From positions 138,448,001 through 138,512,000 of the forward strand of contig CM059431.1 of the NCBI GenBank assembly GCA_030390025.1: a stretch of 64,000 bases of DNA, written 5' to 3'. The position numbers and the translations under genes are program-made. Every line of letters begins with the position of its first letter. Position 1 is the stretch's first letter. This document shows positions 1-23,900 of the stretch, in pieces. The DNA comes from Squalus acanthias. Its lineage: Eukaryota. The notes under the pieces are model-generated. The model had not been told where the DNA came from and ran no database searches. It saw only the letters and a list, made by a program, of their open reading frames with translations.

Positions 1-240
1 CCAGTATATTAAAAGATAGTCACCACAAGTAATGTAAGAGCAGCGTCACCATCACTAATGTTAGAGTAGGGTTAGCACCACTAATGTTGGAGTAGATTCC
101 TCACCAGTAATTTTAGTGTAGAGTCATCACCAGTAATGTTAGAATAGGGTCACCATCAGTAATTTTAGATTAGAGTCACCACCAGCAACGTTAAATTCGG
201 GTCACCACCGATTATGTTACAGCAGAATCAAGTATTTCGC

Positions 241-500
241 ACAGAAGACATCGGAGCAGGAACAGGCCATTCGCACTTTCCAGCCTGCTCCGCATTTCAA
301 TAAGGTCATGGCTGAACTTGTACATCAACTCCACTATTCAGCCCTATATCTTCATCCGTTGATTTCCTTTCTATCCAAAATCTATCGATTTCTCTCTTGA
401 ATGTATCCAACGACTGACCATCCGCAGCTCTTTGTGGTAGAGCATTCAAAAGATTCACAAAGTTTTCTGTGAATACATTTCTCTTCATCTCAGTCAAAAA
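241..500 (-). mobile_element. CR1-type LINE 3' end fragment
   Basis: Reverse complement resembles the CR1 3' UTR at 18225-18305 in this window (ggagttga...agccatga...ttgaa...ggagcaggct...tggcct...cctgctcc) plus the C-terminal coding remnant (RNVFTENFVNLLNALPQ). Confidence 0.8.
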
Positions 501-711
501 GGTTATTGTCAGCTCACCACCGGTAATGTGAGAGTAGGGTTACCAACAGTAATATTAGATTAGCGTCATCACCAGTCATTTTAGAGTAGGGTCACCAAAA
601 GTTATGTTAGAATAGGCTCAACACAAGTAAGGTTAGAGAGAAGTCATCACCAGTAATGTTATACAGGAGTTCTCACCAGTAATATTAGAGCAGGAACACC
701 AGCAGTAATAT

Positions 712-1075
712 GAAAGCAAAATATGCGGATGCTGGAAATCTGAAATAAAACAAGAAATGCTGGAAACACTGATCAGGTCGGGCAGCATCTGTAGAAAGAA
801 AAACAGAGTTAACGTTTCAAGTCGATGACCCTTCGTCAGAACTGGAAAAAGTTGGAAATAAAAAAGGTTTTTAAGCAAGTGCAGGGGCAGGGAGAGTGGG
901 GAGGAGAGGAAAGAACAAAGGGGAAGGTCTGTGATCGGAAGGAAAGCAGGGGGGGATTAAGAGGTTAAAGGGATGATGGAGCAAGGCAAAAGGAGATGGT
1001 TATAGGACAAGTTAAGAAACAAAGATGAGTCTAGATGAAGGGTAAATGGCAATAGCAGAATCATTAACAGCTGCC
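712..1075 (-). mobile_element. Penelope-like retroelement terminal fragment
   Basis: Motif gatgctggaaatctgaaataaaa...ggcagcatctgt...gagttaacgtttc..gtcgatgacccttcgtcagaactgg, recalled as an abundant fish/shark Penelope-type terminal repeat. Contains a minimal hammerhead core on the minus strand. Confidence 0.65.
807..843 (-). ncRNA. Minimal type I hammerhead ribozyme motif
   Basis: Minus strand reads AGUU CUGACGA A GGGUC AUC GACUU GAAA CGU U AACU: CUGANGA and GAAA cores, stem I AGUU/AACU, stem II GGGUC/GACUU, loopless palindromic stem III ACGU, GUU cleavage triplet. Confidence 0.7.
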
Positions 1076-2918
1076 ATGTGAAACTCCACCAGTAATGTTA
1101 GATTACGTTCATCACCAGTAATGATAGAGTAGTTTCACCGCTAGTAATGTTAAAGTAGGGTCATCACCAGACAGGTGTCCTCAACATTAAAGCAGGGACA
1201 CCACCAGTAATGTTAGATTAGGATTATCAGCAGTAATTATAGAGTCGAGTCAGAACTAGTGATGTTAGAGTAGGGTCACCACCAGTAATGTTAGAGTAGC
1301 GTACTACCAGTAACGTTGGAATAGGGTCAGCAGCAGTAAAGTTTGAGTAGGATCACCGCCATTAATGTTAGAGTAGAGTCACCTCCATTAATGTTAGATT
1401 ATGGTCACCACAAGCAATGTTACCGTAGAGTCATCAATATTTATGTTAGAGAAGATACTCTACCAGATATGTTAGGTTTTGTTCACCACCAGTAATGTTA
1501 GTGTCGGGTCACCACAAGATATGTTAGATTAGGCACACCACCAGTTAAGCAGGAGTAGGCTCATCATCAGTAATAGTAGAGTAGGATCACCATCAGTAAT
1601 GTTAGAATAGGGTCTTCACCTGTAATGCTAGAGTAGAGTCACCATCAGTAATGATAGAGTAGGGTCAGCACCAGTAATGTTAGAGTAGGGTTACCATAAT
1701 TAATGATACAGTAGGGACATTACCAGTAATGTTAGCGTAGGGTCACCATCAGTAACTTTAGAGTAGGCCCAGCACCTCTCACGTTAGAGATGAGTCATCA
1801 CCGGTCATGTAAGGGTAGGCTTACCACCAGTAATATTAGTGTAGGGTCACCACCAGTAGGTTTGGAGTTGAGTCACCACCAGTAATGATAAAGAGGAGTC
1901 ATCACCAGTATTGTTAGTGTAGGGTCACCAGCAGTAATGTTAGAGTAGAGTCACCACCAGTAATGTTAGAGTACAGTCACCACCAGAAATATTAGTGTAG
2001 GGTCACCGGCAGTTTTGTTGGAGTCGGGTCACCAGCAGTAATGTTAGAGTAGGGTCACCACCAATAACGTTACAAAAGGGTCAACACGAGTATTGTTATT
2101 GTAGGGTCATTACCAGTAATGTCAGTGTATAGTCACCACCAATACTGTTAGAATATGATCACTAACAGTAATGTTAGAGTTGTATCATCATCAGTAATCC
2201 TAGTGTACCGTCACGACCAATAATATTAGAGTAGGGTCAACACCAGTAATATTAGAGTTGTGTCACTACCAGTAATGTTAGAGTAGGGTCACCACCAGTA
2301 ATATTAGAGTAGGATCAACACCAGTAAAGTTAGAGTAGAGTCACCACCAGTGATGTTAGAGCAGGGTCACCACCAGTAATATTCGAGCAGGGTCACCACC
2401 AGTAATGTTAGAGTAGAGTCACCACCATTAATATTAGAGTTGTGTCGCTACCAGTAATGTTAGAGTAGGGTCACCACCAGTAATGTTAGAGTAGAGTCAC
2501 CACCAGTAATGTTCGAACAGGGTCACCACCAGTAATATTAGAGTTGTGTCGCTACCAGTAATGTTAGAGTAGAGTCACCACCAGTAATGTTAGAGTAGGA
2601 TCAACAACAGTAATGTTAGAGTAGAGTCACCACCAGTGATGTTAGAATAGGGTCACCACCAGTACTGTTAGAGTAGAGTCACCACCAGTAATATTAGAGC
2701 AGTGTCTCCACCAGTATTGTTAGAGTAGGGTCATCAGCATTCATTCGGGAGTACCGTCAGCACCAGTAATGTTAGCGTAGAGCCACCACCAGTAATTTTA
2801 GAGCCGATTCATCAGCAGCCATTATAACAGTACAAAGCAAATTTTAATTATGTGATGGATGAGTGAAGATTTCACTAAATTAACATGAGGCTCCAAGATC
2901 CTAACGCAGAGATCAGGA

Positions 2919-3099: not shown

Positions 3100-3150
3100 C
3101 CAATTATTGTGTAACCTGATTGTCTCACCGGGCACGGATTGTTTTATAAA
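3100..3150 (+). promoter_or_regulatory. Candidate core promoter of the GPCR gene (CCAAT and TATAAA)
   Basis: CCAAT at 3100-3104 and TATAAA at 3145-3150, ~80 nt upstream of the ATG at 3229 (context GAAATGG). Confidence 0.45.
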
Positions 3151-3228: not shown

Positions 3229-3298
3229 ATGGCACGGCCAGCAATTCAACAGATAAGTGACATTTACTACCATATTCTCGCAACCTTCGGTGTTCCCG
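3229..3298 (+). CDS. GPR139-like class A GPCR, coding exon 1 (MARPAIQQISDIYYHILATFGVP)
   Basis: ATG in good Kozak context; ends at phase-1 donor G|GTAAGT (3299). YYxIL..GVP matches the TM1 start of the GPR139/GPR142 family and joins in frame to exon 2. Confidence 0.85.
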
Positions 3299-4053
3299 GT
3301 AAGTCAATGTCTCTTGTTGCCTAATAGCTGTTGACTATCTCACATTTAATGATTATGTAACAGATTCCGGTAATACTCTCATTGCAGAGTCATTTATCCA
3401 CCGGGATAATCGGTGAATACAATGCGGGAATTCGAGCCGTCCGCGCAGCCGCTGAGGCGCTGTTCTCCTCGGAAGGTCGTTTGCACCGGGCGCTCAGTAT
3501 TCCTCCCTATACTGAGGGAGGGCGAGGCTGATTCCCCAGCACCTCCAAACGTTCATAGCCCACTACACAATGTGTTGCTCAGTGTCCATAATAATCACCT
3601 AATTTGTGCCGTTGTTCCCTGTCTACATTAAGTTGATAAATCCTCGGACTGCAGACACCCCCACCCAACAGGGCACTTTGAAAGATAAGTTGAGAAATAA
3701 TTGCCGCTCAGGAATGTGTTCCCATCCACCCGGCAGCGGTTGGACATAAATTCAACGTTGTTGTGTGAGCTGAATATTTTATTTGAATTATATCTCTCCA
3801 TTAATTGCTGTGGAATTATGTTTAATACTGGACTGGAGTTTGCTGGACGGAAGGCGGATTTTCAGTTCCTCTATATTGAATGTTCAAAGATTTCATTACT
3901 TTAAATAAAATGTCGAGAACACTCGCCTATATTAATGATAATAATCCGTGAGCATAGCGCTAAATAGGGACAGATCTGAACCTTTCCCCACAATAAGCTG
4001 TGAGATTTATCCGAGTGTCCCCGTTACTGACCTCGTCTCCCTCTTTCTCACAG

Positions 4054-4982
4054 CGAACCTACTGACAATCGTGATTCTCTCCCGAGGAAACTGCGGCCTT
4101 TCCACTTGTATCTCTGTCTACATGGTGGCCATGGCAACAGCAGATCTACTGGTCATGATCGTTAATATATTAGTGAATCGCATTTTACGTTATCACTTTC
4201 CACATTCCTTCCTGTCCTACACTGTCGTTTGTAAGATCATTCTGTATGTGCAATGTGTCACCCTGTATTTGTCGGTGTGGTTTACAGTCTCGTTCACATT
4301 TGACCGATTTGTAGCTATATGTTGTGAGAAATTTAAAACCAAGTATTGCACAGTGAGAACTGCGGCCGCGGTTATAACGACGGTTTCTGTCCTGATCTGT
4401 TTACAGAGCCTCCTGTTTTGGTTTGCATATGAACCTGAGCGAATAATTAAGAATGTTCCCTGGGGTTGCCGCGCCAGAGTGGAGTTTTTTTCATCGCCGA
4501 CAGGTGTGGCGTTCTCTTGGTTACAAAGCATTTGTTTTAATTGGCTTGCTTTTGCTTTGATATTACTGTTTAATTGTTTGACAGTCAGACGTATTTTAAT
4601 GGCCAGTAGAGCCCGCAGGGGACTCCGGGGTCACAGCATTGAGAATCATAGCGATCCAGAGATGGAGAACAGAAGGAAATCCATAATTTTACTGTTCAGT
4701 GTATCGGGCAGTTTTATACTGTTGTGGCTGACAACTGTTGTTACTTTTGTAACTACCAGAATGACAAGCACCGTGCATTACAGAGGTGATTATGCAGCCC
4801 CTGCCTATATTGCCGCAGAAACCGGATATATGCTCATGTATTTGAGTTCCTGTACAAACACATGCATTTATGCAACTACTCAAACTAAATTCAGGGAAGA
4901 GCTCAAGCAGGTGATGAAAATTCCTTGGACATTTATTGGGAAAAGAATGAAAAGTCAAACCAAAGCTTCCAGTCCTACCTAG
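4054..4982 (+). CDS. GPR139-like class A GPCR, coding exon 2 (spliced protein 332 aa)
   Basis: Branch point TACTGAC, pyrimidine tract and CAG acceptor at 4051-4053. Reads ANLLTIVILS, MATADLL (TM2), SVWFTVSFTFDRFVAIC (TM3/DRY-like), ILLFNCLTV (TM5), SFILLWL (TM6), SSCTNTCIY (TM7), TKFREEL (helix 8). No disruptions. Confidence 0.92.
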
Positions 4983-5554
4983 AGCTCAAATACAAACTGT
5001 GTTGTATTTTAGAATGTCTGCGTTTCTGTTGTGAATATTAATGATAATAATCCGTGTGCATAACGCTAAATAAGGACAGTTGTGGTATCAGAAAACATTT
5101 CTCCCACTTTGTGCCGTATGTTTGATGTCTGCTGCTTTCCCCGGGTGAACAGAATCGTTCCCCGCTGAAACAGCGCCCTTCCCGCTCAAGATTCAAAGAG
5201 AACAGTCATCACTGAGCTTCAGCAGTGGAGTAGAACATGTGACGTCAGCGTTAACTGCCTCACGCCGCAGGTACTGGAATGAGACGCCCCAGTTTAATTA
5301 ACAGATACATTTTCTTTAGTGTAGAAACAATGTGTTAAAATGGTGGTTATCTGTAATTCTGTAATCTTGGTGTGAATGTTGCAGGCGCTGGTCTCCCCAT
5401 CAGACTCCGCCCCCATTGTCTCCTGGACCAATAGAACGGGGCCCTGTCTCCTGATCAGTGTCTGATGATGGAGACAGTAGGAACTTGACTCGTCAATGTG
5501 ACATTAGACATCTTTGTTCACAGATATTTACTGAAAATCTCAACTGGTCATCAC

Positions 5555-5900
5555 AAAGTTGGAACAGGGGGACAGACCATTCGACCCAATCAGTTCGTGT
5601 CGACTGTTACCCTCCACCCGCGGCAATTGTTCCATACACTTCACCCAGCCGGTCTTAACATCACTTCAACCTATTTTTATTTAGCCGTCTATACAATTTA
5701 ATCTTCAATATTGATATTATTTCTGCCTCCGTTATTTCCATCGTCTCACAACACTCCATGTAAAGGGGTTTTCATAACTTTAGTTCTAAATCTCTTAAAT
5801 GTATTATTTTTTCTCTGGCCGCATGTTTTTGATCCTTCAACTAACGGAAGGTTCTGCTTCTATCTATCCTGTGCCATCCTTTCTTAAAGTAAACCACCTG
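5555..5900 (-). mobile_element. Degenerate CR1 3' fragment
   Basis: ggaacagg...accattcgaccc and ttttgatccttcaactaacggaagg...tctatcctgtg resemble the reverse complement of CR1 3' ends elsewhere in the window. Confidence 0.5.
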
Positions 5901-6283
5901 GGTACGACTAGCCTAAATATATGAGTCTGGCATCAAAGCACAGTCTAGTGAAAGTCTGGAAAGTGTACTTAAGATCGTTATTTGCAAGCTTTCTCTTGGT
6001 GATGTCTGAATCCTTGATTTGGCTGAAGAAATAAAGTAATGTATTTGATAGCCAGGCAAATACCCAAAACCTTGTGACGTGTTGTACATGAGCAACCAGC
6101 ATGCTCTATGCGTGATACACATACTCTGAGGAATGGATCCAAAACATGGTCAGTCACGCAGACAACACCATTACATGAAATGGTTATTGTGGCTCTAGAT
6201 AGTGAGAACTTATGTAAAATTAATGGAAGGGGATCTGCACAATAGAATAGGCCGAGATAGATTTATAATGCTAAGGAGATTAT

Positions 6284-7027
6284 GGCCCAGAAATTGGAGT
6301 TCGATGGTTGCCGCGGGGGTAAGGATCCCCCGCGATATCGCACTCTGCGCCTACCTTTATGGTTTTGGCCCACATGAACTTCAGTTCCTCGGCCTCTCCC
6401 TGGTGCCAGCGCGCAGTGTGTGCGTGTCCCAGAGGCGCAGCTAATTCGATGCGACCTCTGGGATCACGTGGGCCAGTTAAAGCCAATAGCAGCACACCAT
6501 CTTTCATTCATAGTTTTGACAGCAAGTGCTGTCAAAACTATGAATACAACAAGCCCCCAAAAGAACAGCTAAACCTCAATTAAATTTAAAAAAGCCATCA
6601 CATTAATAAAATAACTATAGTTAAATAAATTAACCACTTTAAACAAAAATTTAAATTCTTTTTAAAAGTTATAAAAATAAACTTACCTTTCTTTAAAGTC
6701 TCTAAAAAAGATAAACCTGTTGAAAAAAATTTAAAATATTACTTAATTAATTACTTACCTTGTTAAAAGGGGATCTTACGCCTGCTTTCTTTATGTGTAA
6801 AATCTTTAACACTTACCTGCGCGTTCAAACCTGAAAAAAAACTAAGTGCACTCCGTGCGCACAACCCGAAGCACGCACGTGGTTCACTTAGGAACCGCCC
6901 CCTTCCCAATACCCGAAGTGCCGGTTTCCCACGCATGTGCAGTGCATGCAGGAAACCGGCACTTCGGGACCTAATACACGAGAGTACACAGTGCGGACTC
7001 TCCCGCATTAGGTCTAATTTTCGGGCC
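6284..7027 (+). mobile_element. Non-autonomous PIF/Harbinger-type MITE, copy A (744 bp)
   Basis: TIRs GGCCCAGAAATTGGA / TCTAATTTTCGGGCC, flanks TAT/AAT, GC-rich ends with AT-rich core; homologous to 14791-15550 and 23463-24206. Confidence 0.85.
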
Positions 7028-7075
7028 AATATTTAGTGTTCACCTTAAATCCTCTAACGCCAACAAAGGGGGCGC

Positions 7076-7824
7076 TGTAAGGAAAGGATTAATCAGGTTA
7101 TCATAACGAATGCTAATGTTACATGGTATGGGTTTCTCTTTATATTGTAGCAATGTTAACCTTTAGCCTTGTCCTGTTAAGCAGGGAAGCACTGGTCTGT
7201 TTAAAGTACCGCTGGGCTATTGGGCCAGTCCAGACCATGCAACAATGGTCAGTTTCAGGATGAAGCAATAAGCGATTTAATTAAACACATGTCATTGCAA
7301 ACAGATTCACCAATTTCAGGGAACTTTAATCATTTTGTAACAGTTTGGGAATAGAGTTAGTTCTGCAAAGGAAAACACCTGGACATACATCATCATTTTC
7401 AATTTGTAGGATACAGAAACAGACAGAATTACTGTTAAAGGTTTCACTTGGTACAACTGCAAATATATGGGTCAAGAGCGAAACTATCGATCAGATAAAT
7501 CAATTAAATTATCTTTACGTGGAGGTTGATTTTAACTTTGATATCATTGTGTAAAGCAGAATTGTGAGGATAGTCAAGTAGAGGGAGTGAGAAAAATGAA
7601 TAAAAACGAATAGTTTTAATAAGTATTCGGTTTGGTAAAGGCCTAAGATACTGAGCTCAGGACTGTGACATGTTTGGGTCTCCACGCCAACCATCATCAG
7701 GTGTGGTTCTAATTCCTACCTTTTAAGTGTGTGTGTAAGTACTATTGTATGTATTATGTGCTTAATAAACCTATGGCACCTCACGCCAATGTTCAAGTAC
7801 ATTATTGAAAAGCTTATGCTGACA
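7076..7824 (+). mobile_element. Possible LTR (TGT...ACA) preceded by a polypurine tract
   Basis: AACAAAGGGGGCGC immediately before TGTAAGG; AATAAA near 7764; candidate end TGACA at 7824. No second LTR or coding region seen. Confidence 0.3.
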
Positions 7825-8254
7825 ATAGCCTTTGTACTTTAATTCTGAATTGGCTTCATTTATTAACTGTGATTAGGAGCCCGCTTTACCCGTCACTCTT
7901 TAACGTTCCACTTGACCCAGACGTTCTCCAAAACCAAAGTCCTCTTGGTTGCAGGGCCCCGTGGAGCCCGGGCTCTGCCAGTCCGGCTGGAATCCAGCTT
8001 CTGGGGAAAGTGGTGATTAGTTGCGGGTGGTTTTGTGTAAGAGCCACATTCTCATTTACCTGGATGCGGACAACCAGTAGTATTTAAGGCCCGAGTCAGG
8101 CAGCCGGCAGAGGTTTTAGTTCCATCAGTCAGAGATGTTCTGCATCCAGCTACAACCCTGAGAAGGCGACGTTCAATCAACCACATCATCCAAACTCCAC
8201 AGGTAAAATAGAAAGGAAAGGCATGAATAATTAACCATTACATTACCGTGTCAA

Positions 8255-8690
8255 ATTCAATCTGATGTGGTTCTGATTCCCCATCCCCTGTTTCTAATTA
8301 ACCAGTTGTTGTATTCCCTTGTGTGTCTCTATTTCTAATTAAACAGTTACTGTGTTTCCCTGACATTCCCATCTCCTCTATTTATAAATAAACAGTTGCT
8401 GTCTTCCCCTGTCCCCTACTTCTGAATGAAGGGTTATTGTGATCCGCTGCTACCTATTTCTAATATCAGTTGACGTATTACCCTGCCCTCTATTTCTAAA
8501 TAAGCCATTACTGAGTTCCCCTCTATTCCTTTATTATATTTCTAATTAGCAGTTCGTTGGTTCCACTTAATGTTCCTGTTCTCCATTTCTAATTAAACAT
8601 TTACAGTGTTCCCCTAAATTTCCCTTTATTCTATTTCTAATGTTGCTTCACGTGTTCCGCTGAATTCCCCTGTCCTCTAGTTTTCATTCT
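8255..8690. repeat. Degenerate ~38-45-bp minisatellite (tatttctaattaaacagttgctgtgttcccctg...)
   Basis: Recurrent tttctaat..aacag..tgt.ttccc motif about ten times. Confidence 0.7.
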
Positions 8691-9589
8691 AAAGATTAGG
8701 AGCAAGTCTGTTCCATAGATAGACCGTCGCTCATTGAAATAACTGTTCCAGAAATTAGTTTTGAATTTACCCCCACCAATCTCAGGCCATGTCCTCTGGT
8801 TTTACAGTTCTGGACAAGGTGAAACAGCTCGTCATGAACCACATTACCTGGTGGATAAAGAGCAGTGTCTCGCACATATTCAGGTGCCCGGTATTCCTGT
8901 GCCCTTTTTATGTTTGTCATAGGATTGTTAACATGGAAAGGGTAACGGAACTTCTGGTGCTGAGGCAAGCTACAATTCAACAGTTTCAGTGGTTTACACG
9001 GGGCCGTATTTTGCGGACCTATGGGTGCGTATGACTTGCGCACGAGTCCGTAGGGGCCGCGCAAGTTCCGGGTTTAGGCATGCGAAGCGCATACGCTAAA
9101 AAATCGGAAATTGCAATCTGGCGCAGATTTGCGCTATTTGTCAAACTACTGGCCAGCAGTTACTGACGAAACTGCAACGACAGAAATAAAGCAGGCGGAC
9201 AGCCGGCATTCTATCTAAAGAAGAAGCAGGAAGAAGACGTGGAAGTCAGGGGGCTGGAAACCGGACTGTTTTAACTTTTAAAGTTAACAACGTTCTTGGT
9301 ACAAAGCCTGATTTAAGTTTTTAACAACTTTAATTTGTTAAATATTTCTTTGGTTTTGGATCTATTTCTGAGGAGTGTCGGTGATTAGAAGAGGAACTTT
9401 CGCTGTGGACCAGTTAAGCATTCCATTCAAATAGATTTCTTTTTTTTAACCTTGAAAATGACTGTTTAAAAATGATTTTGTTCACGTTAACTCATGTTTA
9501 GAATTATGCCAAAATATACGAATGTTTTAAATGTTAACTTTTGTAAGCTGTTTAAAAATTAATGTCTGACTTTGTAAAATGTTTTAAAA

Positions 9590-9696
9590 GTCTTAGAAAT
9601 TGTTCTCAGGCGGTGATATTGATCAGGCGGGTTTTGACGGGCGGCCGATCCGATACCGCCCGTTTCACATCACCACCCGCCGTGAATTTCTAACCA
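9590..9696. mobile_element. ~107-bp mini-MITE
   Basis: TTAGAAATT / AATTTCTAA inverted ends and an internal hairpin ACGGGCGG...CCGCCCGT; a GC-rich island in AT-rich sequence. Confidence 0.5.
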
Positions 9697-9787
9697 CTCA
9701 CTTTATTAATATGACGTTTACAACTCTTTCCATTTCTTCCCAACAGTTACTGCATCTATTTAAAGAGGAAGCCTGTGAGGGAGAATC

Positions 9788-10959
9788 ATGCCTCATGAGG
9801 AGTTTGCCCCGATCTTGTGTGTGATTCTGGCTCATAGAATCGAAAACACCAGGAAACAACAAAGAAGACTGAGGAACCATGACCGCCACCTAATCAGGAG
9901 GAACTACTACCCACCCAGAGAGGGTACAGGGAGAGGCTGTCTTTTCAGATGCTGTTGCAGGATTTGTGTGTGAGCAGGCTGCAATTTTGTAAATAAACAT
10001 TTGACCTACTATGTGACATGTTGAATGACGGCCTTCAAACACGCTCGAAGACCCTCACTGCCTTGTCAGTGTCCATGAAGGTAACCACAGCACTGAACTT
10101 CTTTGCATGCGGGTCAGTTCAGTCAGGCACCGGTGACAATTCAAACATCACCCAGAGTGCTCGAGGGCCTGCTTTCACCAGGTCACAGATGCAATATTCC
10201 GCAGGGATTCAGAGTTCATAGACTTCGACTTGTCCACTCGGCGGAAGAAGGAGAGGTCCTTTAATTTTATAGGATTACTGGCTTCCCCAAAGTGATTGGG
10301 GCCGTCGGTGGAACCCATGTTGCATAGAAGGCACCAATTGATGCACCTCTGACATACAACAACAGGAAGGGGTTTCATTCAATAAATGTAATAATTGTCT
10401 GTGATGCACAACTCAGGATCCTAAACATGAATGCAGTTCACCGGGGAAGTGCTCATGACTCCTTCGTCCTCCGTCACTCGGACTTAAATAGCGCCCACAG
10501 TACATTGCCTCCAGGATCTGCATGGATATTGGGTGACAAGAGCTACCCGATAAAACCATGGTTGATGACACCATACCGCAGGACCAATAATGGGGCTCAG
10601 GAGAGATACAACCAGGCACACGTGTCCACACGGCAATTGGTGGAAAGGACAATCGGGCTTCTGAAATCACGCTTCCGGTGCCTGGACAGGATGGGGCGGT
10701 GGGGGGGGGGGGGGGGGAGGTGCGGAGTTTGCAGTATTCTCCTCTGAAAGTGTCATGGAATGTGGTGGCCTTTTGTGCTTTGCATAACTTTGCCCTGCGG
10801 GAAGGACTGACCCTTAACCCTGCAGACGAGCTCCCTGCTGAAATGGAGGACATGGAGGATGCCAATATCTTTGTGGCCATGCCTGATGAGGAGGAGCCAA
10901 GTGCTGCCGAAACCAAAGCTGCCAGGGAACTGCTAGTAGCCAACACGTTTGCAAGGTGA
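9788..10959 (+). pseudogene. HARBI1-like (Harbinger DDE) transposase pseudogene
   Basis: Motifs across frames: KVTTALNFFACGSVQ, GFPKVIGAVGGTHVA, NRKGFHSINV, GSAHDSFVL, WILGDKSYP..PWLMTPY, YNQAH.STRQLVERTIGLLKSRFRCLD, LQYSP..V....AFCALHN. Several frameshifts and stops; first catalytic D replaced by G. Confidence 0.9.
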
Positions 10960-11644
10960 TGATAGTGTCGCCTCCTTCCTCGCCCTCCCCAGGAAGGCAC
11001 AGAAAAGAACAGACACAATTTAAAGTGAAACAGTGAACGTTTATTGCACCATTAAAAACTTTTGTTATACTGTTTTGATGTTCTACGTCTTTAAATACAA
11101 ATTGTTAGCTAGCTATTTTCTACATTGTAAACATTTGCAAAGATAAATTGGTTGATAAAAAATGTAAACCGTTTAATGTGACTTTTTGGGTTTCTTAGTG
11201 CAATAAAAACTTTACATTCAAGATGAAATCTAGCTATTTTCAAATTTTTTAAACAGTTGTAATGTTCAATTGACTGTTAATAAAAAAAAGTTGAAAAAAG
11301 AAATAAAGTGACAGGAGGCTTTACATATAAAACGAAATGGTTAAATACACTATGAGTCAGAAATATAAATTTCACGAAATAACACAACGCAAGCATTTAA
11401 AGAACAGCAAACATTAAAACATTGACAGATCTGCCCTTCGCATCTGTGACTGAGGATCGAAGAAGGTGAATTGTGCAAAAGGTGGCACCCTACTGTCTCC
11501 TGCGCTTTCCCCTTCCCCGTGACTGGAGCCCTCTGACCCAAGTGAAAGGCCCCTGTGGACAATCTCTGGCCCTTCAGCAACTGGCTCGTGACAGGGTTAC
11601 TGCTGCTGCTGCTGCTGCTTAAAGACAACATATACATGCAGATT

Positions 11645-12615
11645 AAAGCTACCTCTACACCGTCCCATCAAACACTCCCAGGTCACGTACAGCATGGGTT
11701 ACATACAGTGTAAAGCATATTTAAACTGACGATAAAATACTCACGCGACAGGTCCAGCATTGGTCACATACAGAGGAAATCTCCCTTCATATTATCCCAT
11801 CAAAGACGCCCACGACAGGTCCAGCACGGGGTAGATATTGAGTAAAGCTCCCTTCACACTATCCCATCAAAGATTCCCACAATAGTTCCAGCACGGGGTT
11901 GATATAGAGTGAAGCTCCCTCCACACCATCCCATCCAAGACTCCCACAATAGTTCCAGCAAGGGGTTGATATAGAGTGAAGCTCCCTCCACACCATCCCA
12001 TCAAAGTCTCCAAGGTCAGGAATAGCATGGGTTACATACAGAGTAAAGCTCCCACCACACTATCCCCTCAAATACTCCCACGACAGGTCCAGCACGGGTC
12101 ACATACAGAGTAAATCTCCCACCACATTATCCATCAAAGACTCCCACGACAGGTCCAGCACGGGGTAGATATAGAGTAAAGCTCCCTCCACACTATCCCA
12201 TCAAAGATTCCCAGATCAGGAATACATGGGTTACATACAGAGTAAAGCTCCCTCTATACTATCCCATCAAAGTCTCCTAATTCAGGAATAGCATGGGTTA
12301 CATACAGAGTAAAGCTCCCTCCATACTAACCCATCAAAGACTCCAAGGTGAGGTACAGCACGGGTCGCATACAGAAAGCTCCCTCGACACTGTTCCATTA
12401 AACACTCCCAGGGCAGGTAGGCAGGAGTTGGATACATTGTAAATCTCTGTATTATCGTTTATCAAGCACAGTGAACTCAGATACAGCATGAGGTCAAAGC
12501 AGCGTACAGCTCCTCTTACACTACCCAAGGAACCTCACCATCTCACGTACAGCATGGTATGAATACAGGACAGAAATCCCTTTACATGTGAGTATCACGC
12601 ACTCCCAGGTGAGGT
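11645..12615. repeat. 67-bp minisatellite, ~14 copies (agtaaagctccctccacactatcccatcaaagactccc...)
   Basis: agt(a/g)aagctc recurs at 11841, 11908 and 11975, a 67-nt period. Confidence 0.9.
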
Positions 12616-12975
12616 ATGGGCGAGCTTTACTTACCAGTGAATCCACAGTCAAATTATCGCATCAAATACCGAGACTTCTGCCAAAAATTAAACGGCGCCC
12701 AATAGCTTGATAGAATCTCACCTTGAAAAAATCCTGTACTGATGGGATTCCCAGCCTTTCCAATCATTGATGAAGCTTCCTGGTTTATGCCATCTTGTCC
12801 AATGTGAGTGTTGGTCGCACCAGGTCTGTTCTGTGAAATCAGAGACCTTTCTCTAGTCCCAGTTAGTTCATAAAATCAGCGTCAGTTCTTTATATTATCG
12901 GCCCGCACCACAGAAAATACTCCTGACCCCGCAAAAGTGGCAGGAAATCCCCCTTAGAGAGACCACATTGGCACG

Positions 12976-13528
12976 GGTGTGGGGAATGAAACCATGTTGT
13001 ACTGGGAGTGTCTCTGAGTCTGTTGCTGAGGTCCATGTGCTGCCTTTGGCCGATACTACAATGGGGCTGGTGTGGAGAATGAAACCATGTTGTACTGGGA
13101 GTCTCTCTGAGTCTGTTGCTGAGGCCCATGTGCTGCCTTTGGCCGATACTACAATGGGGCTGGTGTGGGGAATGGAACCATGTTGTACTGGGAGTCTCTC
13201 GGAGTCTGTTGCTGAGGCCCATGTGCTGCCTTTGGCCGATACTACAATGGAGCTGGTGTCGGGAATGAAACCATGTTGTACTGGGAGTCTCTCTGAGTCT
13301 GTTGCTGAGGCCCATGTGCTGCCTTTGCCCGATACTACAATGGGGCTGGTGTGGGTAATGAAACCATGTTGTACTCGGAGTCTCTCTGAGTCTGTTGCTG
13401 AGGCCCATGTGCTGCCTTTGGCCGATACTACAATGAGGCTGGTGTGGGAAATGAAACCATGTTGTACTGGGAGTCTCTCTGAGTCTGTTGCTGAGGCCCA
13501 TGTGCTGCCTTTGGCCGACACTACAATG
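12976..13528. repeat. 93-bp tandem repeat, 6 near-identical copies
   Basis: gaatgaaaccatgttgtact recurs every 93 nt (12984, 13077, ...), giving 31-aa periodic ORFs. Confidence 0.95.
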
Positions 13529-14790
13529 CCGTCCCAGCATAGTGTTAGAGTTTGAAAATGACACCCCGGGTGATGCTGGGTAGATTCAGTTTATTGCAGA
13601 ATGACTGGAACCAAGTGAACTCAGAAAGTCCACCAGTGGATGAAAGCCCTTTGCTCCGGGCTATAAAAGCCAACATTCACTGGCCATGGCGGGAGCGGCT
13701 CGGCTTTGCTCAGAGTGGCCGGAGATCAGTGAATTCAGCGAAGAGGGTCTGAGGACCATTGATGCTGGGGCTGAATTTCCATCAATCGACACTGGACCTC
13801 AAGGTCCCATTCAGCTGTGGACAGACTCCAAGAGCTGTGCCCATGGGTCGGGGATTTCTGGGACTATCCCTTTGTGTCCGGAATGGTCTGTCCGGAATGT
13901 TTCCTCTCTTTAAAGAGCCGGGGAAGAATCCTTCAGTACCTTGCACTCCCTCCATGGTCTGTGGGATCTACAGCCCGATCCTCTGCTGGGATCCAGTGCG
14001 TCATCTCACGGGAGCAGTCACATCCATCAAGGCCTTTCTCACAGTTTCACTCCTGAACCCTCAGCCTCATGGGTTTAACTCTATGAACAGTAAGTTCAGG
14101 AATCTAATCCTTTTTAATCAGTAGTATTTCTCTATTTGAAGTTCCAGCTCCTACTCACTCCCTTAGTTTACCAGGAGTTCACTGATCAGAAGTCCTTTCA
14201 TTTCTTTGCGATGATTGTTATTTTCACCATCCTGTGATCCCCTGGTCTGCAGCAGCGGTCGCGGTTTGTGGTTATAATGCTTTGTGTTTCAGCTGAATAT
14301 TATGTTTGAATTTATATATTTCCAGTAATTGTTTGTAAATTATATTGATTACAGCTGACATCTGATGCCGCTCCCGAGATCCCCCTCGCCAATTAAACCT
14401 ATGAGATTAAATGTAAAATTCCATCGATTGCTCCCTGGGGCCGCTGTAGTAACTCATCAAATTGGCTCGGTGTATCACATGGTCCCAGCCTCATGGCGGG
14501 TTGGTTTCAGCGCTCCACACTGCAATGGAATGTGTGTTTGGATTTATGTAAGGGAATCCGCTTCTTTATTGTCTCTGAATATGAACAAGTTACAGAACCA
14601 TCATAGGTTTCGCTTCAAGTGTCTTTTATCTGTAACTGCACCGTCCCTGCGAGGTACTCCGGTTTGAACTGGATCGCACAGTTAGAGTGTGAATGGAGAC
14701 TCAGTCTAGTGTCAGGGGCGATAGTGATTGAAATGACAATCGGGGGAGATGTATGACGGATGGCTGATCCAGTGTCGCCGGTTTTACATT

Positions 14791-15550
14791 GGGCCAGAAA
14801 TTCAGCTTTCCGGCTTCCTGCGGGTGCAAGCATCGCGCGCGTACTTACCCACCGCGGCTGCCGTTGTGCTTTGGGCCCACGAGGACTTCGGGTCCTGGGC
14901 CTCCTCCAGCTGCCGGCGGGCAGTGCTTGTGTATCCCAGGGGCGCAGTTAGTTCGAAGCGTCCCCTGGGATCACGTGGGCCATGGAGAGCCAATCCTAGC
15001 AGGGCATTTTCATTCATAGATTTGACAGGAAGACCTGTCAAATCTATGAATAGAGATCGGACCCAAAACCACACTTAAACTTCAAATAAATGAAAAAAAT
15101 TACCTTTTTAAAATAACTATAAGTTACATAAATTAACTACTTTAAACAAAAATTTAAATTTTTGAAAAAATTAATTATACTTTTTAACGTTGCTAAAAAT
15201 AAACTTACCTTTCTTTAAAGTATCTAAAAAAGATAAACCTGTTGAAAAAATGTTTAAATTGTAATTACTTAACCACTTACCTTGTTAAAAGCAGGCCTAG
15301 CGCCTCCTTGTTAAAAGTGCAGCTTTTCCATACTTACCCTTCAGGAGAAACCTGAAAAAAAAACCTGAAGTTTGCTGCGTGCGCGCAGCCTCTCCCGCGC
15401 ACGCATTCGACTTCTGAACCCTCCCTTCAGGGGAATGGAAGTTCCGGTTTCCCGCGCATGCGCAGTGCATGCAGGAAACCGGCACTTCAGGTGGCCTTAC
15501 GGTTGAGTACACAACGCGTACTCACCCGACATGGGCCGAATTTCTGGCCC
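14791..15550 (+). mobile_element. Harbinger-type MITE, copy B (760 bp)
   Basis: Perfect 13-bp TIR GGGCCAGAAATTC / GAATTTCTGGCCC with ATT target-site duplication (14788-14790, 15551-15553). Confidence 0.9.
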
Positions 15551-15877
15551 ATTATCTCACAAAGTTAATATCCTTCTACATCAGTGCCTGGGTTTCTGTG
15601 GTGGTGGGGATCGCTCTCCGTGTCCATTCCCGATACTGAATCCGAGCGACCCTCCTCCCCGCGCCACCTTGACAACGTCTGACTGAAGTAAGCTGGAAGG
15701 ATGATCATTCTCAGTCCCTCTATAGTGAGTGTAGAATCCTATAATTCTTTTGAACCAAATGTCGACAACGCTCACCTATATTAAAAATAATAGCAACACT
15801 TCTCAACATTTCACCACAATAAGCTGTGAGATTTATCCGAATTTCCCCGTTAATGACCTCTTGTCTCTTTCTCACAG

Positions 15878-18622
15878 CGAATCTACTGACAATGGTGATT
15901 CTCTCCGGAGGAAACTGTGGCATTTCCAAGTGTATCTCTGTCTACATGGTGGCCATGGCAACAGGAGATCTACTGGTCATGATCCTCAATGTAATAGAGT
16001 ATCATATTTGTACAAATCACTTTCCACATCCTTCCTGTCCTACACTGCCATTTGCAAGATCATTATTTACATCAATTCTACCAGCCTGGATAAGTCGGTG
16101 TGGTTTACAATCTTGTTTACATTTGACCAATTTGTAGCCATATGTTGTCAGAAGTTTAAAACTAATTATTGAAGAGTGAGAACTGCGGTTGTGGCCATAA
16201 CAACGGTCTCTGTCCTGATCTATTTACAAAGCATTCCAGATGTGATTGCCTATAAACCTGAACGAATAATTACCAATATTCATTTGGGTTGTTACCCCGG
16301 ATTGGACTATTTTCCATCGCCTGCAGGTGTCGTGTTCTCCCGGTTACAAGGTATGATTACGATGTGGATTCCTTTTGCTTTATATATTACTGTTTAATTG
16401 TTTGACAGTCAGAGGTATTTTAGTGATCAGTAGAGCCCGCAGGAGACTCCGGGGTCACAGGAGTGTGAATCAGAGCGATCCAGAGATTAGAACCGAAGGC
16501 AATCCATCATACATACATAAATGTAGGCCCTTTACAGTCAGAGATGGCAGAATTTATAACTGCGAATGAGGAAATGGCAGAGAAATTAAATAAATATTTT
16601 GTTTCTGTCTTCACGCAGGAAGACACAAAAAAAACTCCCAGAAATACGAGAAAACCAAGGGTGTGACGAGAATGAGGAAGTTAAAGAAATTATTATTAGT
16701 AAAGAAACAGTACTAGCAAAATTAATGGGACTAAAAGTCGACAAATCCCAAGGACCGGCTTACCGACATCCTAGAGTTTTGAAAGAGGTGGCAATTGGAA
16801 TAGCGGACGCATTGGTTGTCATCTTCCAAAATTCTATGGATTCTGGAACGGTTCCTGCAGATTGGGGGATAGCAAATGTATCCCCGCTATTTAAGAAATG
16901 AGGGAGAGAGAAAACGGGGAACTACAGACCTGTTAGCCTCACATCAGTAGTTGGGAAAATGCTGGAATCTATTATAAAGGATGCAATAACAGGGCACTTA
17001 GAAACTAATAGTAAGATTGGGCAGTGTCAACATGGATTTGTGAAAGGGAAATCATGTTTGACAAACCTATTGGAGTCCTTTGAGGATGTAACTAGTGGAG
17101 TAGACAAAGGGGAACGGTAGATGTGGTGTATCTGGATTTTCAGAAGACCTTCGATAAGGTCCCATACAAGAGGTTGGTGAACAAAATTAGGGCACATGGA
17201 ATTGGAGGTAATATACTAGCATGGATTGAGAATTGGTTAACAGACAGAAAACAAAGAGTAGGGATAAACGGGTCTTTTTCAGGATGGCAGGCTGTGACGT
17301 GTGGGGTACTGCAAGGATCGCTGCTTGGGCACCAGCTATTCACAATCTATATCAATGATTTGGATGGGGGGACTAAATGTAACATTTCCAAATTTGCTGA
17401 TGATACAAAGCTATGTGGCAGTGTCAGTTGCGAAGAGGATGTGAAGAGGCTTCAAGGGGATCTCGACAGGCTCAGTGAGTGGGCGAGAACATGGCAGATG
17501 GAATATAACGTGGATAAATGTGAAGTTATCCACTTTGGTAGAAAAAACAGAAAGGCAGAGTATTTCCTCAATGGTGAAAGATTGGGGAACGCAGATGCTC
17601 AAAGGGACCTGGGTGTCCTTGTACATGAGTCACTGAAAGTGAATGTGCTGGTACAGCAAGCCATTAGGAAGGCAAATGGTATGTTGGCCTTCATTACAAG
17701 AGGATTTGAGTACAGGAGTAAAGAAGTCTTACTCCAATTATATAGGGCTTTGGTGAGACCACACCTGGAGTACTGTGTGCAATTTTGGTCCCCTTACCTG
17801 AGGAAGGATATACTTGCCATAGAGGGAGTGCAATGAAGGATCACGAGCTTGATTGCTGGGATGGCGGGACTGTTGTATGAGAAGCGATTGAGTAAACTAG
17901 GCCTGTATTCTCTTGAATTCAGAAGAATGAGAGGGGATCTCATTGAAGCATACAAAATTATTACAGGGCTTGATTGGATGGATGCTGGGAGAATGTTTCC
18001 CTTAGCTGGGGAGTCTAGAACCCGGGGCCACTGGCTCAGGATAAAGGGTATGCCATTCAGGACTCAGATGAGAAGAAATTTCTTCACACAGAGGGTGGTG
18101 AATTTTTGGAATTCTCTACCCCAGGGGGGTTTGGAGGCTCAGTCATTGGGTAGATTCAAAACAGAAGTCGATAGATTTCTGACTAGTAAGAGCATCAAGG
18201 GATATGGCGATAGGGCCGGTGAATGGAGTTGAGGCAGAAGATTAGCCATGATCTCATTGAATGGCGGAGCAGGCTCGATGGGCCGATTGGCCTACTCCTG
18301 CTCCTATTTCTTATGTTCTTATTTTTCTGTTCATTGTATCGGGCAGTTTTATAGTGTTGTGGCTGACAGTTGTCGTTCGTTATTTCACTACTGGACTGAG
18401 AAACCCCGCGCATTAAGGAGATGGTCATACATCTCCTGCTTAAATCGCCTCTAAAACCCGGTTTATGCTCATATATTTGAGTTCCTGAACAAACACGCGT
18501 ATTTATGCAGATACACAAACTAAATTCAGAGAAGAGCTGAAGTGGTGAAATCTCTTTCGACATTTATTCTGATATTGGTTAAAAAAATCAAACATTAAAT
18601 CAAAGCTTCCTGTCCTAACTAG
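15878..18622 (+). pseudogene. GPR139-like paralog exon 2 pseudogene, split by a CR1 insertion
   Basis: Collinear with 4054-4982 including the acceptor ctttctcacag. 1-nt deletion ~16029, TGA at 16170-16172, further indels ~16382 and ~16488. Interrupted at ~16510 and resumes at ~18321 (atttttctgttcattgtatcgggcagtttt). Confidence 0.92.
16511..18320 (+). mobile_element. 5'-truncated CR1 LINE (ORF2 reverse transcriptase remnant and 3' UTR)
   Basis: YLDFQKTFDKV, QGS, YINDL, KFADDTKL, RPHLEYCVQFWSP, ESRTRGH motifs with in-frame stops; ends in a ttcttatgttctt tail. Confidence 0.95.
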
Positions 18623-19064
18623 AGTAAAATTACAGCCCGTGTTCCATTTTGGAATGGCCGTCTTTCTGTTAGGACGAAAGCCAAATGTTGTTGTGGAATT
18701 GAACAGGTATCAGAAAATACTTCCTTCACTTTGTGCCGTGTGTTTGATGTCTGCTGCTTCCTCAGGGTGAACATAATCGATTACCGTAAAACAGAGCACC
18801 TCCCGCTCAAGATTCCAAGAGATTTCATATAAATGCAAGTTGTTGTTGTAGTCTAATTGATAACAGATTGTTTGCTATGAATAGTCAATAACTCCATTAT
18901 CAACAATAACAAGAATCACAAATGATTCAGGTTAATAAGGCCATAAACAAGCACACCAAGCACGAGTCGTTATTTCTGGAAGAAGAGAGTTGCAAAGCAG
19001 TTAAGTAATGTAAAACTTGTATCGAACCTTGGGTAAACCACACTTAGATAGTTACTAATAAATC

Positions 19065-19328
19065 CAATAGGAAGTTCAGGGGAAACTTATTTTCCCAAAG
19101 AGTGGTGGGAATGAGGAACTCGCTGCCACATGGAATAGTTGAGGTGAATAACAGATGTATTTAAGGGGAAGCTGGATAGGCACATGTGGGAGAAAGGGAT
19201 AGAAGGATATGTTGATGGGGTTAGAGGGAGATGGGTGGAACTAGGCTCGTGTGGAGCATAAACACCAGCATGAACTTGTTGGGCCGAATGGTCTGTTCCC
19301 TTGCAGTAAATACTATGTAATACTCTGA
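19065..19328 (+). mobile_element. CR1 3' end fragment
   Basis: agagtggtgggaatgaggaactcgctgcc...gggccgaatggtctgtt and a (ta)ctatgtaa-type tail. Lies in an insertion absent from the paralogous flank near 5200. Confidence 0.75.
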
Positions 19329-19467
19329 AAGAACGGGCACGATTTAGCTTCAGCAGTGGAGCAGAACATATGGCCGTCAGCATTACCTGCCTTGCACCGC
19401 ATGTACTGAAATGAGACGCTCAGTTTAATTAACAGATAACGTTTCCTTTAGTGTAGAAACAATGTGT

Positions 19468-20924: not shown

Positions 20925-23900
20925 GGGGGAGGGTGAACAGCCAGAGGTCGTGGATCATATCGGTACCAACGACATAGGTAGGAAGAGGGATGAGGTCCTG
21001 CAGGCAGAGTTTAGGGAGCTAGGAAAGAGGCTAAAAAGCAGGAGCTCAAAGGTAGTAATCTCCGTGAGTACAGAAATAGGAAGATAGAGCAGTGAATGCA
21101 GGGCTGGAGAGATGGTGTATGAGGGAAGGCTTTAAATTCCTGAGGAATTGGAACCGTTTCTGGGGGAGGTGGGTCCTCTACAAACCAGATGGGTTGCACC
21201 TCAACGGGAACGGGATCAATATCAACGCGGGAGGGTTTGCTGGTGTATGTTGGGGAGGGTTTAAACTAGCTTGACAGGAGGATGGGAACCGAAGTATAGA
21301 AAAACTGGAATTGGAAAAGAAAAACGTAGAAAGTACATTGGAAGGACAGAGGAATCAAGGGCTAGATAGTAGTCAACAAGGAGTTTTGCCTTTACTAAAT
21401 GGTATATTATTCAATGCAAGGAGTATAGCGAACAAGGCAGATGAGCTGAGGGCACAGGTAGAGACTTGGGACTATGATATTATAACTATTACAGAGACGT
21501 GGCTGAAAGAGGGGCAGGTATGGCAGCTCAACATTCCTGGTTACAGGATTTTCAGATGGGATAGAGAGAGAGGTAAAAAGAGAAGGGGTTGCGGTATTGA
21601 TTAAAGAAACAAATACAGCTGTGAGGAAGGATATGTTGGAGGGATCATCAAACGAGGCCATATGGGTCGAATTGAAAAACAAAAAAAGGGGAGATCACAC
21701 TGCTGGGAGTGTATTACAGACACCCAAACAGTGAGAGGGAGATAGAAGAACAAATATGTAGACACATTTCTGAGAAGTGAAAAAACTATAGGGCAGTAAT
21801 AATAGGAGATTTCAACTATCCCAATATTCACTGGAATAAAATTAGTGTGAAGGGTATAGAGGGTGCAGAATTCCTAAAATGCATCCAGGAAATCTTTTTT
21901 AGCCAATATGTAGCAAGCCCAGCAAGGGAGGGGGCGGTTCTGGACTTGGTTTTAGGGAATGAAGCTGGGCAGGTAGAAGGCGTATCAGTGGGGGAGCATT
22001 TTGGTGCTAGTGACCATAATTCTGTTAGATTTAAGGTAGTTATGGAAAAGGACAAGGATAGACCAGGAATAAAAATTCTAAATTGTGGAAAAGCAAATTT
22101 TGCTTAGCTCAGAGGGGATTTAGCCATAGTGGACTGGAAGCAGCTACATGAAGGTAAATCAGTGTCAGAGTAGTGGGAGGCATTCAAGGAGGAGATCCGA
22201 AGGGTTCAGACCAAATATGTGCCCTTAAAGAAAAAAGGTGGGACTAACAAATCTTGATCCCCCTGGATGTCCAGGGACATACAGGGTAGGATAAAGAAAG
22301 ATACCGAGGGCGAAATACTGCAGAATCTTTAGAGGAGTACAGAAAATGCAGGGGTGCAATTACAAAAGGATTTTATGAAAGCAATAAGAGAGCATGAAAA
22401 ATTCTTGGCAAGTAAAATCAAGGGAAACCCAAAGATGTTTTATAAATATATTAAGAGTAAGAGGATAACTAAAGAAAGGGTGGTGCCTAGTCGAGATCAT
22501 TAGGGTAATCTGTGTGTGGATGCGGGAGACGTTGGAGGGGTGCTTAATGAATATTTTGCATCTGTTTTCACAAAGGAGAGGGGCGAAGCAGACATTGCTA
22601 TCGGGGAGGAGCAGTGTGAAATATTACAAGAAATAAACATAGTGAGAGAGGAAGTATGAAGGGGTTTAGCAGCTTTAAAAGTGGATAAATCCCCAGGCCC
22701 AGATGAAATGTATCCCAGGCTGTTAAGCGAAGGAAAAGAGGAAATAGCAGAGGCCCAGACCATCATTTTTCAATCCTCTTTGGCTACAGGTGTGGTGCCG
22801 GAGGACTGCTAATGTGGTACCCTTGTTTAAAAAGGGTGAAAAGGATAGACCGAGTAACTATAGTCCAGTCAGCCTAACCTCGGTGGTGGGAAAATTATTG
22901 GAAAGAATTTTGAAGGACAGGATAAATCTTCATTCAGAAAGACACGGATTAATCAAGGATAGTCAGCACGGATTTGTTAAGGGAAGGTCGTGTCTGACAA
23001 ACATGATTGAATTTTTTGAGGAGGTAACAAGGAGGGTAGATGAGGGTAGTGCTTTTGATGTCGTTTACATGGACTTTAGCAAGGCTTTTGATAAGATTCC
23101 ACATGGCAGACTGGTCACGAAGTTAAAAGCCCATGGGATCCAGGGCAAAGTTTCAAGTTGGATTCAAGAGTGGCTCGGAGACAGGAAGCAGAGGGTAATG
23201 GTTGATGGGTGTTTTGTGACTGGAAGGCTGTTTCCAGTGGGGTTCCACAGGGATCAGTACTAGGTCCCTTGCTTTTTGTGGTATATATCAATGATCTAGA
23301 CTTGAATATAGGGGATATGATTAAGAAGTTTGCAGATGATACTAAAATCGTTTGTGTGGTTGATACTGAAGAAGGAAGCTGTAGACTGCAGGAAGATATC
23401 AATAAATTGGTCAGGTGGGCAGAATAGTGGCAAATGGAATTCAATCAGAAGTGTGAGGTAATGGGCCGAAAATTGATCCCGGGACGCGAGAGTACGCACT
23501 GCGTACTCTCGCGTATTCCCACTCCAATTGCCGGTTTTCTGCATGCCCTGCGCATGCGCTGAAAACCGGCAATTGCTCTTCTGAAAAGGGGGTGGGGCCT
23601 GGGTGCATCGCGTGCGCGCTACAGGCTGCGCGCACGCTGTGCACTTCATGCTTTGGACGCGCAGGTAAGTAGGGAAGATTTTGGAAATGTAAAAAGGAGG
23701 AGGAAGACCCGCTTTTAAGAAGGTAAGTAGTGAATTAAGTATTTTTTTGAATTTTTTTTTACAGGTATATCTTTTTTAGAGACTTTAAAGACAGGTAAGT
23801 TTATTTTTATAACTTTTTAAAAGATTTTAAATTTTTTTAAAAATTTAATTTTTTATTTAAAATGGTTAATTTAATTAACTATACTTATTTTATTAATGTG

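Follow-up and report, generated by a model that had tools for sequence, protein, structure and literature searches.

A GPR139-like receptor gene of Squalus acanthias as a member of a probably undescribed chondrichthyan receptor repertoire

Is an intact receptor gene in the shark Squalus acanthias the counterpart of GPR139, which in mammals is single copy and activated by L-Trp and L-Phe, or does it belong to a lineage-expanded family evolving like odorant or taste receptors, as an earlier note on this locus had proposed? The gene in question, gene A, lies together with a second copy, copy B, in a stretch of 64,000 nucleotides (assembly GCA_030390025.1, contig CM059431.1, positions 138,448,001 to 138,512,000 of the forward strand), the whole of which is called the window below and is numbered from its first letter. 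Gene A would be a working copy and copy B a dead one in a receptor repertoire found throughout the chondrichthyans, which may have arisen by repeated duplication from one GPR139/GPR142-superfamily gene of jawed vertebrates. We regard this as a real and probably undescribed receptor repertoire, the genes of which are already public under an automatic name, and with moderate confidence we favor a diversified set of class A (rhodopsin-like) G-protein coupled receptors (GPCRs) directed at external or non-self chemicals.

A chondrichthyan family and its sister gene

Gene A lies on the plus strand as two exons (3229-3298 and 4054-4982; 999 nt) that encode an intact frame of 332 amino acids, and its ATG, GT..AG intron and N terminus, the last in agreement with annotated relatives, bear out the earlier description of an intact gene. 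A Pfam 7tm_1 match (E 5.8e-20) and the residues N1.50, D2.50, R3.50 and Y7.53 place the product among class A receptors, and the predicted model of P0002, a protein 80% identical to gene A, contains seven transmembrane (TM) helices (pLDDT 78). A sawshark protein is 80% identical to gene A on the evidence of exon 2, and gene A differs from the family at 5 of 126 conserved columns, the family median being 8.

A homolog search from gene A returned 2011 proteins at E<=1e-3, which is not a family count, as taxonomy is known for the best 120 only; all 120 of these are elasmobranch (sharks, rays, skates), are 50-80% identical to gene A and are mostly auto-named 'probable G-protein coupled receptor 139'. 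Among the best 120, distinct close paralogs (<95% identical) number 29 in Pristiophorus, 26 in Heptranchias and 31 in Heterodontus. A family profile built from 40 of the 120 gave 133 clusters (50% identity) at E<=1e-30, among which fragments and mispredictions are numerous. Species were looked up for 30 of the 150 listed profile-match clusters: all 18 high-scoring ones are chondrichthyan, including one from Callorhinchus milii, and the 12 lower-scoring ones comprise a salamander, a coelacanth, two teleosts, a caecilian, two Branchiostoma and five without a species name. By these searches the family appears to be expanded only in chondrichthyans (sharks, rays, chimaeras). Contigs of one shared length carry 18 of the 31 Heterodontus matches, all 8 of those from S. 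canicula and 8 of 27 from Heptranchias (hand count, best 120), and family copies cluster on a few chromosomes. The tandem cluster that had been proposed is thus evident from other genomes, not from the present window, in which tblastn finds A and B and no third copy, one of the two being dead and B no recent duplicate.

Copy B, on the same strand (15681-19467 overall), aligns with gene A by blastn in three blocks (A 3831-4687 with B 15681-16510, 78.8%; A 4686-5201 with B 18321-18822, 73.3%; A 5199-5335 with B 19330-19467, 84.2%), in accord with the downstream paralog already described as sharing the intron end and 3' flank. It is a pseudogene, with four frameshifts (16029, 16382, 16488 and 18542), four clear internal stops (16170, 18414, 18441 and 18486) and two more that depend on the alignment (16488 and 18596). 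Similarity to A stops at 16510 and restarts at 18319, the boundaries of an inserted long interspersed nuclear element (LINE) fragment of ~1.8 kb, and searches for exon 1 with tblastn, blastn and local alignment turned up nothing, the top local score of 39 lying below the 49 reached by shuffled sequence. Members of the family die, then, by frameshift and by LINE insertion, and the dead copy together with the 26-31 paralogs per shark upholds the idea of a lineage-expanded, birth-and-death family. That B might be a recent twin of A was considered and rejected, as A comes only 51st when 121 family proteins are ordered by their summed tblastn scores with B; by this measure B appears to be an old paralog.

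The origin of the family was sought in a main tree of 29 chosen rows, with which a 65-row quick tree agrees. The earlier note had asked how the genes group with respect to true GPR139 and GPR142, and here the monophyly of the family is recovered (99/98) but the two named receptors are absent from both trees, the outgroup rows being unnamed invertebrate-type proteins. In the 29-row tree Callorhinchus is nested inside the chondrichthyan clade, and the expansion began before chimaeras split from sharks and rays. The sister of this clade is a gene of sturgeon, reedfish and amphibians (100/99), and two other bony-vertebrate GPR139-like clades and amphioxus fall outside the pair. The salamander match led to 20 amphibian clusters with one match per species at 66-74% identity, to which sturgeon and reedfish are added; the row P0257 is presumably a frog, a label that is our guess. 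Word-based searches, which are too narrow to prove loss, brought up neither teleosts nor amniotes for the sister clade, and we found no study of the gene, which is auto-named 'probable GPR139'. It is 31% identical to gene A and resembles the shark family in its short N terminus, DR motif, N5.58 and a similar motif in the third intracellular loop (ICL3) and TM6, but differs in having one match per species, a near-invariant basic pocket and retained P6.50 and K6.51; in amphibians it also carries N2.50 where the shark family has D2.50.

The family must further be set apart from known subtypes of the GPR139/142 group. A third set, GPR210A and GPR210B, is described from coelacanth, gar and fishes by Rinne et al. 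2019 (PMC6504862), and the available text of that survey, which is without cartilaginous fish, contains no occurrence of 'shark' or 'cartilag'. Our coelacanth, teleost and caecilian matches P0212, P0215, P0243 and P0267 are probably GPR210A/B. These clades are separate from the shark family (100/99 each), keep ERF/ERY and R6.51 and appear to be low-copy.

Receptor motifs and the GPR139 ligand residues

Human GPR139 is the top match of the family profile in the PDB (E 2e-18), and GPR139 is also the top PDB match for four relatives (salamander, coelacanth, teleost and amphioxus-type). The likeness to GPR139 and GPR142 (PDB 7VUG and 9M42), the best match among solved structures, extends to the absence of Pro 7.50, to W6.48 (118/120 shark proteins), to an acidic residue at 7.36 (111/120) and to a similar TM1, in which we take the GPR139 intron to lie at the same position as that of gene A. 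Because GPR139 is the top PDB match and yet is only 19% identical to the P0002 model, gene A is best assigned, on sequence grounds, to the GPR139/GPR142 superfamily and not as a GPR139 ortholog. Orthology was rejected on three counts: the 19% identity of the P0002 model to 7VUG in the structural alignment, a phmmer E of 4.4e-6 for gene A against GPR139 that is weaker than those for AT2R and OX1R, and the multicopy state of the family. The earlier note's separation of the gene from GPR139 therefore stands, with binding residues lost as well. A structure-based fold search gave peptide receptors as best matches at near-equal scores, with GPR139 at rank 29 and no separation between them.

All of the peptides and unusual motifs that had been quoted (DRF, no proline in TM6, NTCIY in TM7) are present, but the TM7 motif cannot bear the meaning put upon it. 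Human GPR139 itself has NFFLY, and none of the amphibian, bony-fish and amphioxus relatives has Pro 7.50; the missing proline is ancestral, being common to human GPR139 and all relatives, and was rejected as a sign of chemosensory or odorant-like evolution. Position 6.50 is another matter, as it is T in 116/120 shark proteins and P in 23/23 co-orthologs, with P also in 5/28 divergent members, and the loss of P6.50 appears specific to the shark side. Against GPR139 the shark family also differs in being multicopy and variable in its pocket, in an N terminus of ~12 residues that is nearly sequon-free (a glycosylation sequon in 1/72), and in lacking R6.51, F3.33 and N7.39 as well as P6.50. It has a Cys pair, C3.25 (119/120) with a Cys in the second extracellular loop (ECL2; 113/120), that human GPR139 does not, and ECL2 forms a β hairpin in the P0002 model. 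The pair and the modeled hairpin suggest peptides or mid-sized organics rather than free Trp or Phe as ligands.

Mutagenesis and modeling, as far as the available text of PMC5430874 goes, place Trp and Phe on F3.33, H5.42 (5x43), W6.48, R6.51 and N7.39 (7x38). Gene A has C, Q, W, T and Y at these five positions (3.33, 5.42, 6.48, 6.51 and 7.39), and family-wide only W6.48 is conserved, H5.42 being found in 53/120. In the shark proteins 3.33 is F in 6/120, and 7.39 is chiefly Y, A or T; at 6.51 A, T, S and V predominate, and the seven most frequent residues include neither R nor K. R6.51 is present in 8/8 outgroup GPR139-likes, and the 23 co-orthologs have K6.51 together with F3.33 and N7.39. 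Because the Trp/Phe-binding residues F3.33, R6.51 and N7.39 are lost, amino-acid sensing in the manner of GPR139, which the earlier note had thought possible, is unlikely.

Variation of the outer half and the readings it allows

With the pocket taken as 39 generic class A positions, heterozygosity among the paralogs of a single shark, computed for three sharks in turn, is 0.46-0.50 for the pocket, 0.39-0.45 for the remaining extracellular TM positions and 0.20-0.28 for the cytoplasmic half (pocket against all other TM sites, p 3e-4 to 8e-4), and the proposed concentration of variation in the extracellular, ligand-facing half is borne out. The same three values in 21 amphibian orthologs are 0.05, 0.20 and 0.20. 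Thirty-one of the 39 pocket sites are invariant in these amphibians and none in sharks, and of the 25 TM sites that vary most, 10 belong to the pocket in sharks (p 0.013) and none in amphibians. Codes of eight pocket sites, picked after inspection, come in 112 distinct forms in 120 shark proteins and in a single form in the 21 amphibians. In the shark receptors a conserved cytoplasmic face is thus combined with a hypervariable extracellular half that takes in the pocket, and the co-ortholog of bony vertebrates is the opposite in having a frozen polar pocket. Two proteins with an overall identity of 79% to gene A, one from a sawshark and one from a horn shark, share its code at 7/8 and 6/8 sites respectively, whereas only 0-3 of the 8 are kept by 11 relatives with 75-77% identity, which points to retained specificities, not noise.

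A mechanism can be proposed on this basis. The ancestor would have had one fixed ligand, and the polar and basic pocket of the co-ortholog (R2.61, K6.51, K6.55, R7.35, D5.39 and E6.58), if ancestral, suggests an anionic molecule or the end of a peptide. Shark copies would then have dropped the 6.51 anchor and diversified for many ligands, retaining one G-protein output, which by analogy with GPR139 we presume to be Gi/o or Gq. The simplest reading of a design of many ligands and one output would be a set of receptors directed at external or non-self chemicals. Of the hallmarks of a chemosensory repertoire, lineage-specific expansion, clustering and pseudogenes are present, and a diversified pocket on a conserved scaffold is found relative to the cytoplasmic half and to the single-copy ortholog, although only weakly relative to adjacent extracellular sites. 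Birth and death, genomic clustering, a variable pocket with a conserved signaling face and a compact gene are all shared with olfactory receptors, TAARs, V1Rs, V2Rs and T2Rs, and TAARs are also alike in their origin from a conserved single-ligand receptor; the FPR and MRGPR expansions are, we assume, parallel cases of co-opted chemoreceptors. There is no kinship with these families, however, as gene A and four relatives match no Pfam profile above cut-off other than 7tm_1, and the nearest named relatives are GPR139-like.

Several points weigh against a repertoire tuned to many ligands. The excess of the pocket over adjacent outer sites is small, so that the whole outer half varies and not the pocket alone, and radical changes reach p values of only 0.013-0.13; the pocket divergence that had been predicted therefore holds against the amphibian gene (0/39 against 31/39 invariant sites) but is slight against its neighbors. 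Among 28 divergent members the pocket shows no excess of heterozygosity at all (0.65 vs 0.65). The amphibian genes are less diverged overall (TM identity 0.83 vs 0.62-0.67), which makes the comparison one of pattern, unmatched for divergence, and the list of 39 positions is a generic one, with residue numbering assigned within the analysis. Gene A itself lacks two near-invariant family prolines, P4.60 being replaced by L (residue 144, 4413 region) and P5.50 by A (residue 189, 4548 region), and may be atypical. Residue 15 of gene A is H for P, and a few relatives carry the same changes.

The comparison of A with B is of limited help here. Their nucleotide identity is 0.67-0.78 in the outer segments (TM2top/ECL1, TM3top, TM4, ECL2, TM5top, TM6top/ECL3 and TM7top) and 0.86-0.94 in cytoplasmic segments, so the uneven divergence that had been reported is real; because B is a pseudogene, however, part of the apparent pocket differences may be neutral decay. 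The overall ratio of nonsynonymous to synonymous divergence (dN/dS), 0.86, is uninformative because B decays neutrally. The outer-half dN/dS of 0.97 (0.57-1.7) comes from the sole DNA pair, one member of which is a pseudogene, and is no demonstration of positive selection. Synonymous divergence (dS) is 0.35 in the outer half and 0.19 in the inner, with overlapping intervals, and the pattern may stem from gene conversion within the inner half.

The alternative that survives best is genomic drift, in which duplication-prone, repeat-rich regions would have multiplied the gene, the outer half would have relaxed after loss of the ancestral ligand and most copies would be redundant. The 26-bp array by gene A, its LINE-killed neighbor and the nearby 37-kb satellite fit such an account, as do the outer-half dN/dS of about 1 between A and B, the small excess of the pocket over other outer sites and the tendency of bigger elasmobranch genomes toward more tandem duplicates, reported in the available part of a preprint (bioRxiv 10.1101/2025.06.08.657570). 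Set against it are the dozens of intact, deeply diverged subfamilies that have persisted since before the chimaera split, the strong conservation of the cytoplasmic face and the retention of the gene A pocket code in two distant shark orders, and we consider drift unlikely. Less probable still is a set of receptors in which every paralog would be tuned to an endogenous ligand, the ligands being diversified peptides or metabolites of the animal itself with hormonal, reproductive, gut or neural roles. Such receptors would suit the peptide-receptor-like disulfide and ECL2 hairpin, the peptide receptors among the best fold matches and the pocket codes kept between species, and also the kinship of the superfamily with invertebrate FMRFamide, MIP and proctolin receptors (available text of PMC12208981; Atlas neighbors). 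They are, however, usually few and conserved, as is the single amphibian gene, and account poorly for the frequent death of copies and for 112 variants of the pocket among 120 proteins. Finally, sensors of L-Trp, L-Phe or related amino acids of the GPR139 type, or the GPR139 ortholog itself, are very improbable, since the PDB match of the profile and the retained W6.48 and acidic 7.36 stand against 19% identity to 7VUG, better scores of gene A on AT2R and OX1R and the loss in sharks of F3.33, R6.51 and N7.39, with 6.51 basic in outgroups and co-orthologs.

For a repertoire directed at external or non-self chemicals, the site of expression separates two possibilities. Expression in chemosensory cells (nose, taste buds, or solitary cells of skin or gill) is put forward tentatively, at somewhat less than an even chance, and expression in immune or barrier cells is rather unlikely. 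That the GPR139 branch has independently given rise to a further vertebrate chemosensory family, placed in olfactory, taste or skin sensory cells of chondrichthyans, is possible but doubtful. Three unlabeled runs under the same species label, guessed to be RNA, contained no contigs at least 99% like gene A (0/14, 0/11 and 0/12), a result uninformative either way on its expression; they hold paralog pieces only, 80-99% alike, nearly all at low depth and some with intron sequence. A junction to exon-1-like sequence at 4053 in one paralog contig, from run X1, supports both the position of the intron and the apparent splicing of some family member. Paralog contigs also align on 5084-5349 of the gene A 3' flank. 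In the catshark all olfactory neurons are Go/TRPC2-positive according to the available text of PMC10116579. The same text has olfactory receptor expression dominated by V2R genes, with v2r1 at moderate frequency, a further point against a chemosensory role; that study covered only four known receptor families, and the dominance of V2R neither excludes nor supports another family.

The locus and the significance of the repertoire

The features of the locus are collected in Table 1. The 26-bp array upstream of gene A ends ~425 bp ahead of its ATG, and none was found before copy B, which also lacks a detected exon 1. A 45-bp direct repeat, 93% identical, stands on either side of gene A exon 2, in the intron (3929-3973) and just past the stop (5035-5079), and looks like a templated copy specific to the gene A lineage, because copy B carries other sequence at the 3' site.

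Table 1. Features of the receptor locus in the window, and the sister gene of the family
Feature	Position or identifiers	Strand	Evidence and remarks
26-bp tandem satellite array upstream of gene A	18..2803	+	Tandem Repeats Finder, period 26, <=61.8 copies, 73% matches; three blocks and a short one
Putative promoter of gene A	3100..3150	+	CCAAT 3100-3104, TATAAA 3145-3150, ~80 bp before ATG; read from sequence
Gene A exon 1	3229..3298	+	ATG 3229, GT donor after 3298; very short N terminus and first half of TM1
Gene A phase-1 intron	3299..4053	+	GT..AG ends
Gene A exon 2	4054..4982	+	Open frame, remainder of the 7TM receptor, intact
3' flank common to copy B, possible 3' untranslated region	4983..5335	+	blastn; 77-86% identity
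Copy B intron 3' end remnant with acceptor	15681..15877	+	80% identity to A 3831-4053; extra 68-bp match 14285-14352
Copy B pseudogene exon 2, first part	15878..16510	+	3 frameshifts, stop 16170, DRF to DQF
LINE fragment inserted in ICL3/TM6 of copy B	16511..18318	+	RVT_1 E 1.9e-17 at 17096-17833
Copy B pseudogene exon 2, second part	18319..18622	+	Stops 18414, 18441, 18486; frameshift 18542
Copy B 3' flank	18623..19467	+	blastn; interrupted by unaligned ~500-bp insertion 18823-19329
Unnamed sister GPCR of amphibians, sturgeon, reedfish	P0206, P0270, P0277-P0296, P0319		e.g. XP_069092602.1 (P0206)

No other cellular gene was recognized in the window, which contains 279 N. From 26744 to 64000 it consists of ~37 kb of GC-rich satellite, with period 26 at its start and a unit unlike that of the upstream array, in which all three minus-strand frames are open for thousands of codons as an artefact of the repeat. 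A DDE_Tnp_4 transposase fragment (10328-10960, E 1.6e-30) is, we presume, of the Harbinger/PIF type. Three copies of an element of ~700 bp with internal palindromes, 73-77% alike (6313-7032, 14820-15555 and 23459-24079), are possibly a non-autonomous DNA transposon. Two minisatellites lie between A and B, at 11633-12418 (period 67, 11.8 copies) and 12976-13528 (period 93, 5.9 copies, 95% matches).

We found no paper describing the family, as judged from listings and abstracts and with subscription journals outside coverage. The main texts of PMC10620051 and PMC11979771 contain no occurrence of 'receptor 139' or 'GPR', and neither 'receptor 139' nor 'GPR139' occurs in the supplements of PMC10620051, PMC12361510 (one file excepted), PMC13188829, PMC10529500 and PMC11806052. 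In the available part of the Squalomix preprint (10.1101/2025.06.08.657570) the passages on tandem genes name SUCNR1 and V2R, not the present family. The present analysis shows that the family has a single-copy sister gene in bony vertebrates, that the pocket of this gene is frozen and that sharks have lost the 6.51 anchor.

The olfactory receptor repertoire of cartilaginous fish is reported to be the smallest among vertebrates, with a mean of 43.8 genes despite many sensory neurons (PMC10869828), and the GPR139-like family is left out of these counts. Were it a chemosensory family, it would outnumber all known chondrichthyan odorant receptors and reconcile a large olfactory organ with ~44 genes. 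The co-ortholog of frogs, salamanders and sturgeon, with its frozen pocket, opens a laboratory route (Xenopus, axolotl) to the ligand and tissue of the ancestor, and this single-copy orphan is also well suited to ligand discovery for its own sake. If the shark genes are expressed in immune or barrier cells, they would constitute a new innate-sensing repertoire; expression in sensory cells would alter how smell and taste in sharks are understood.

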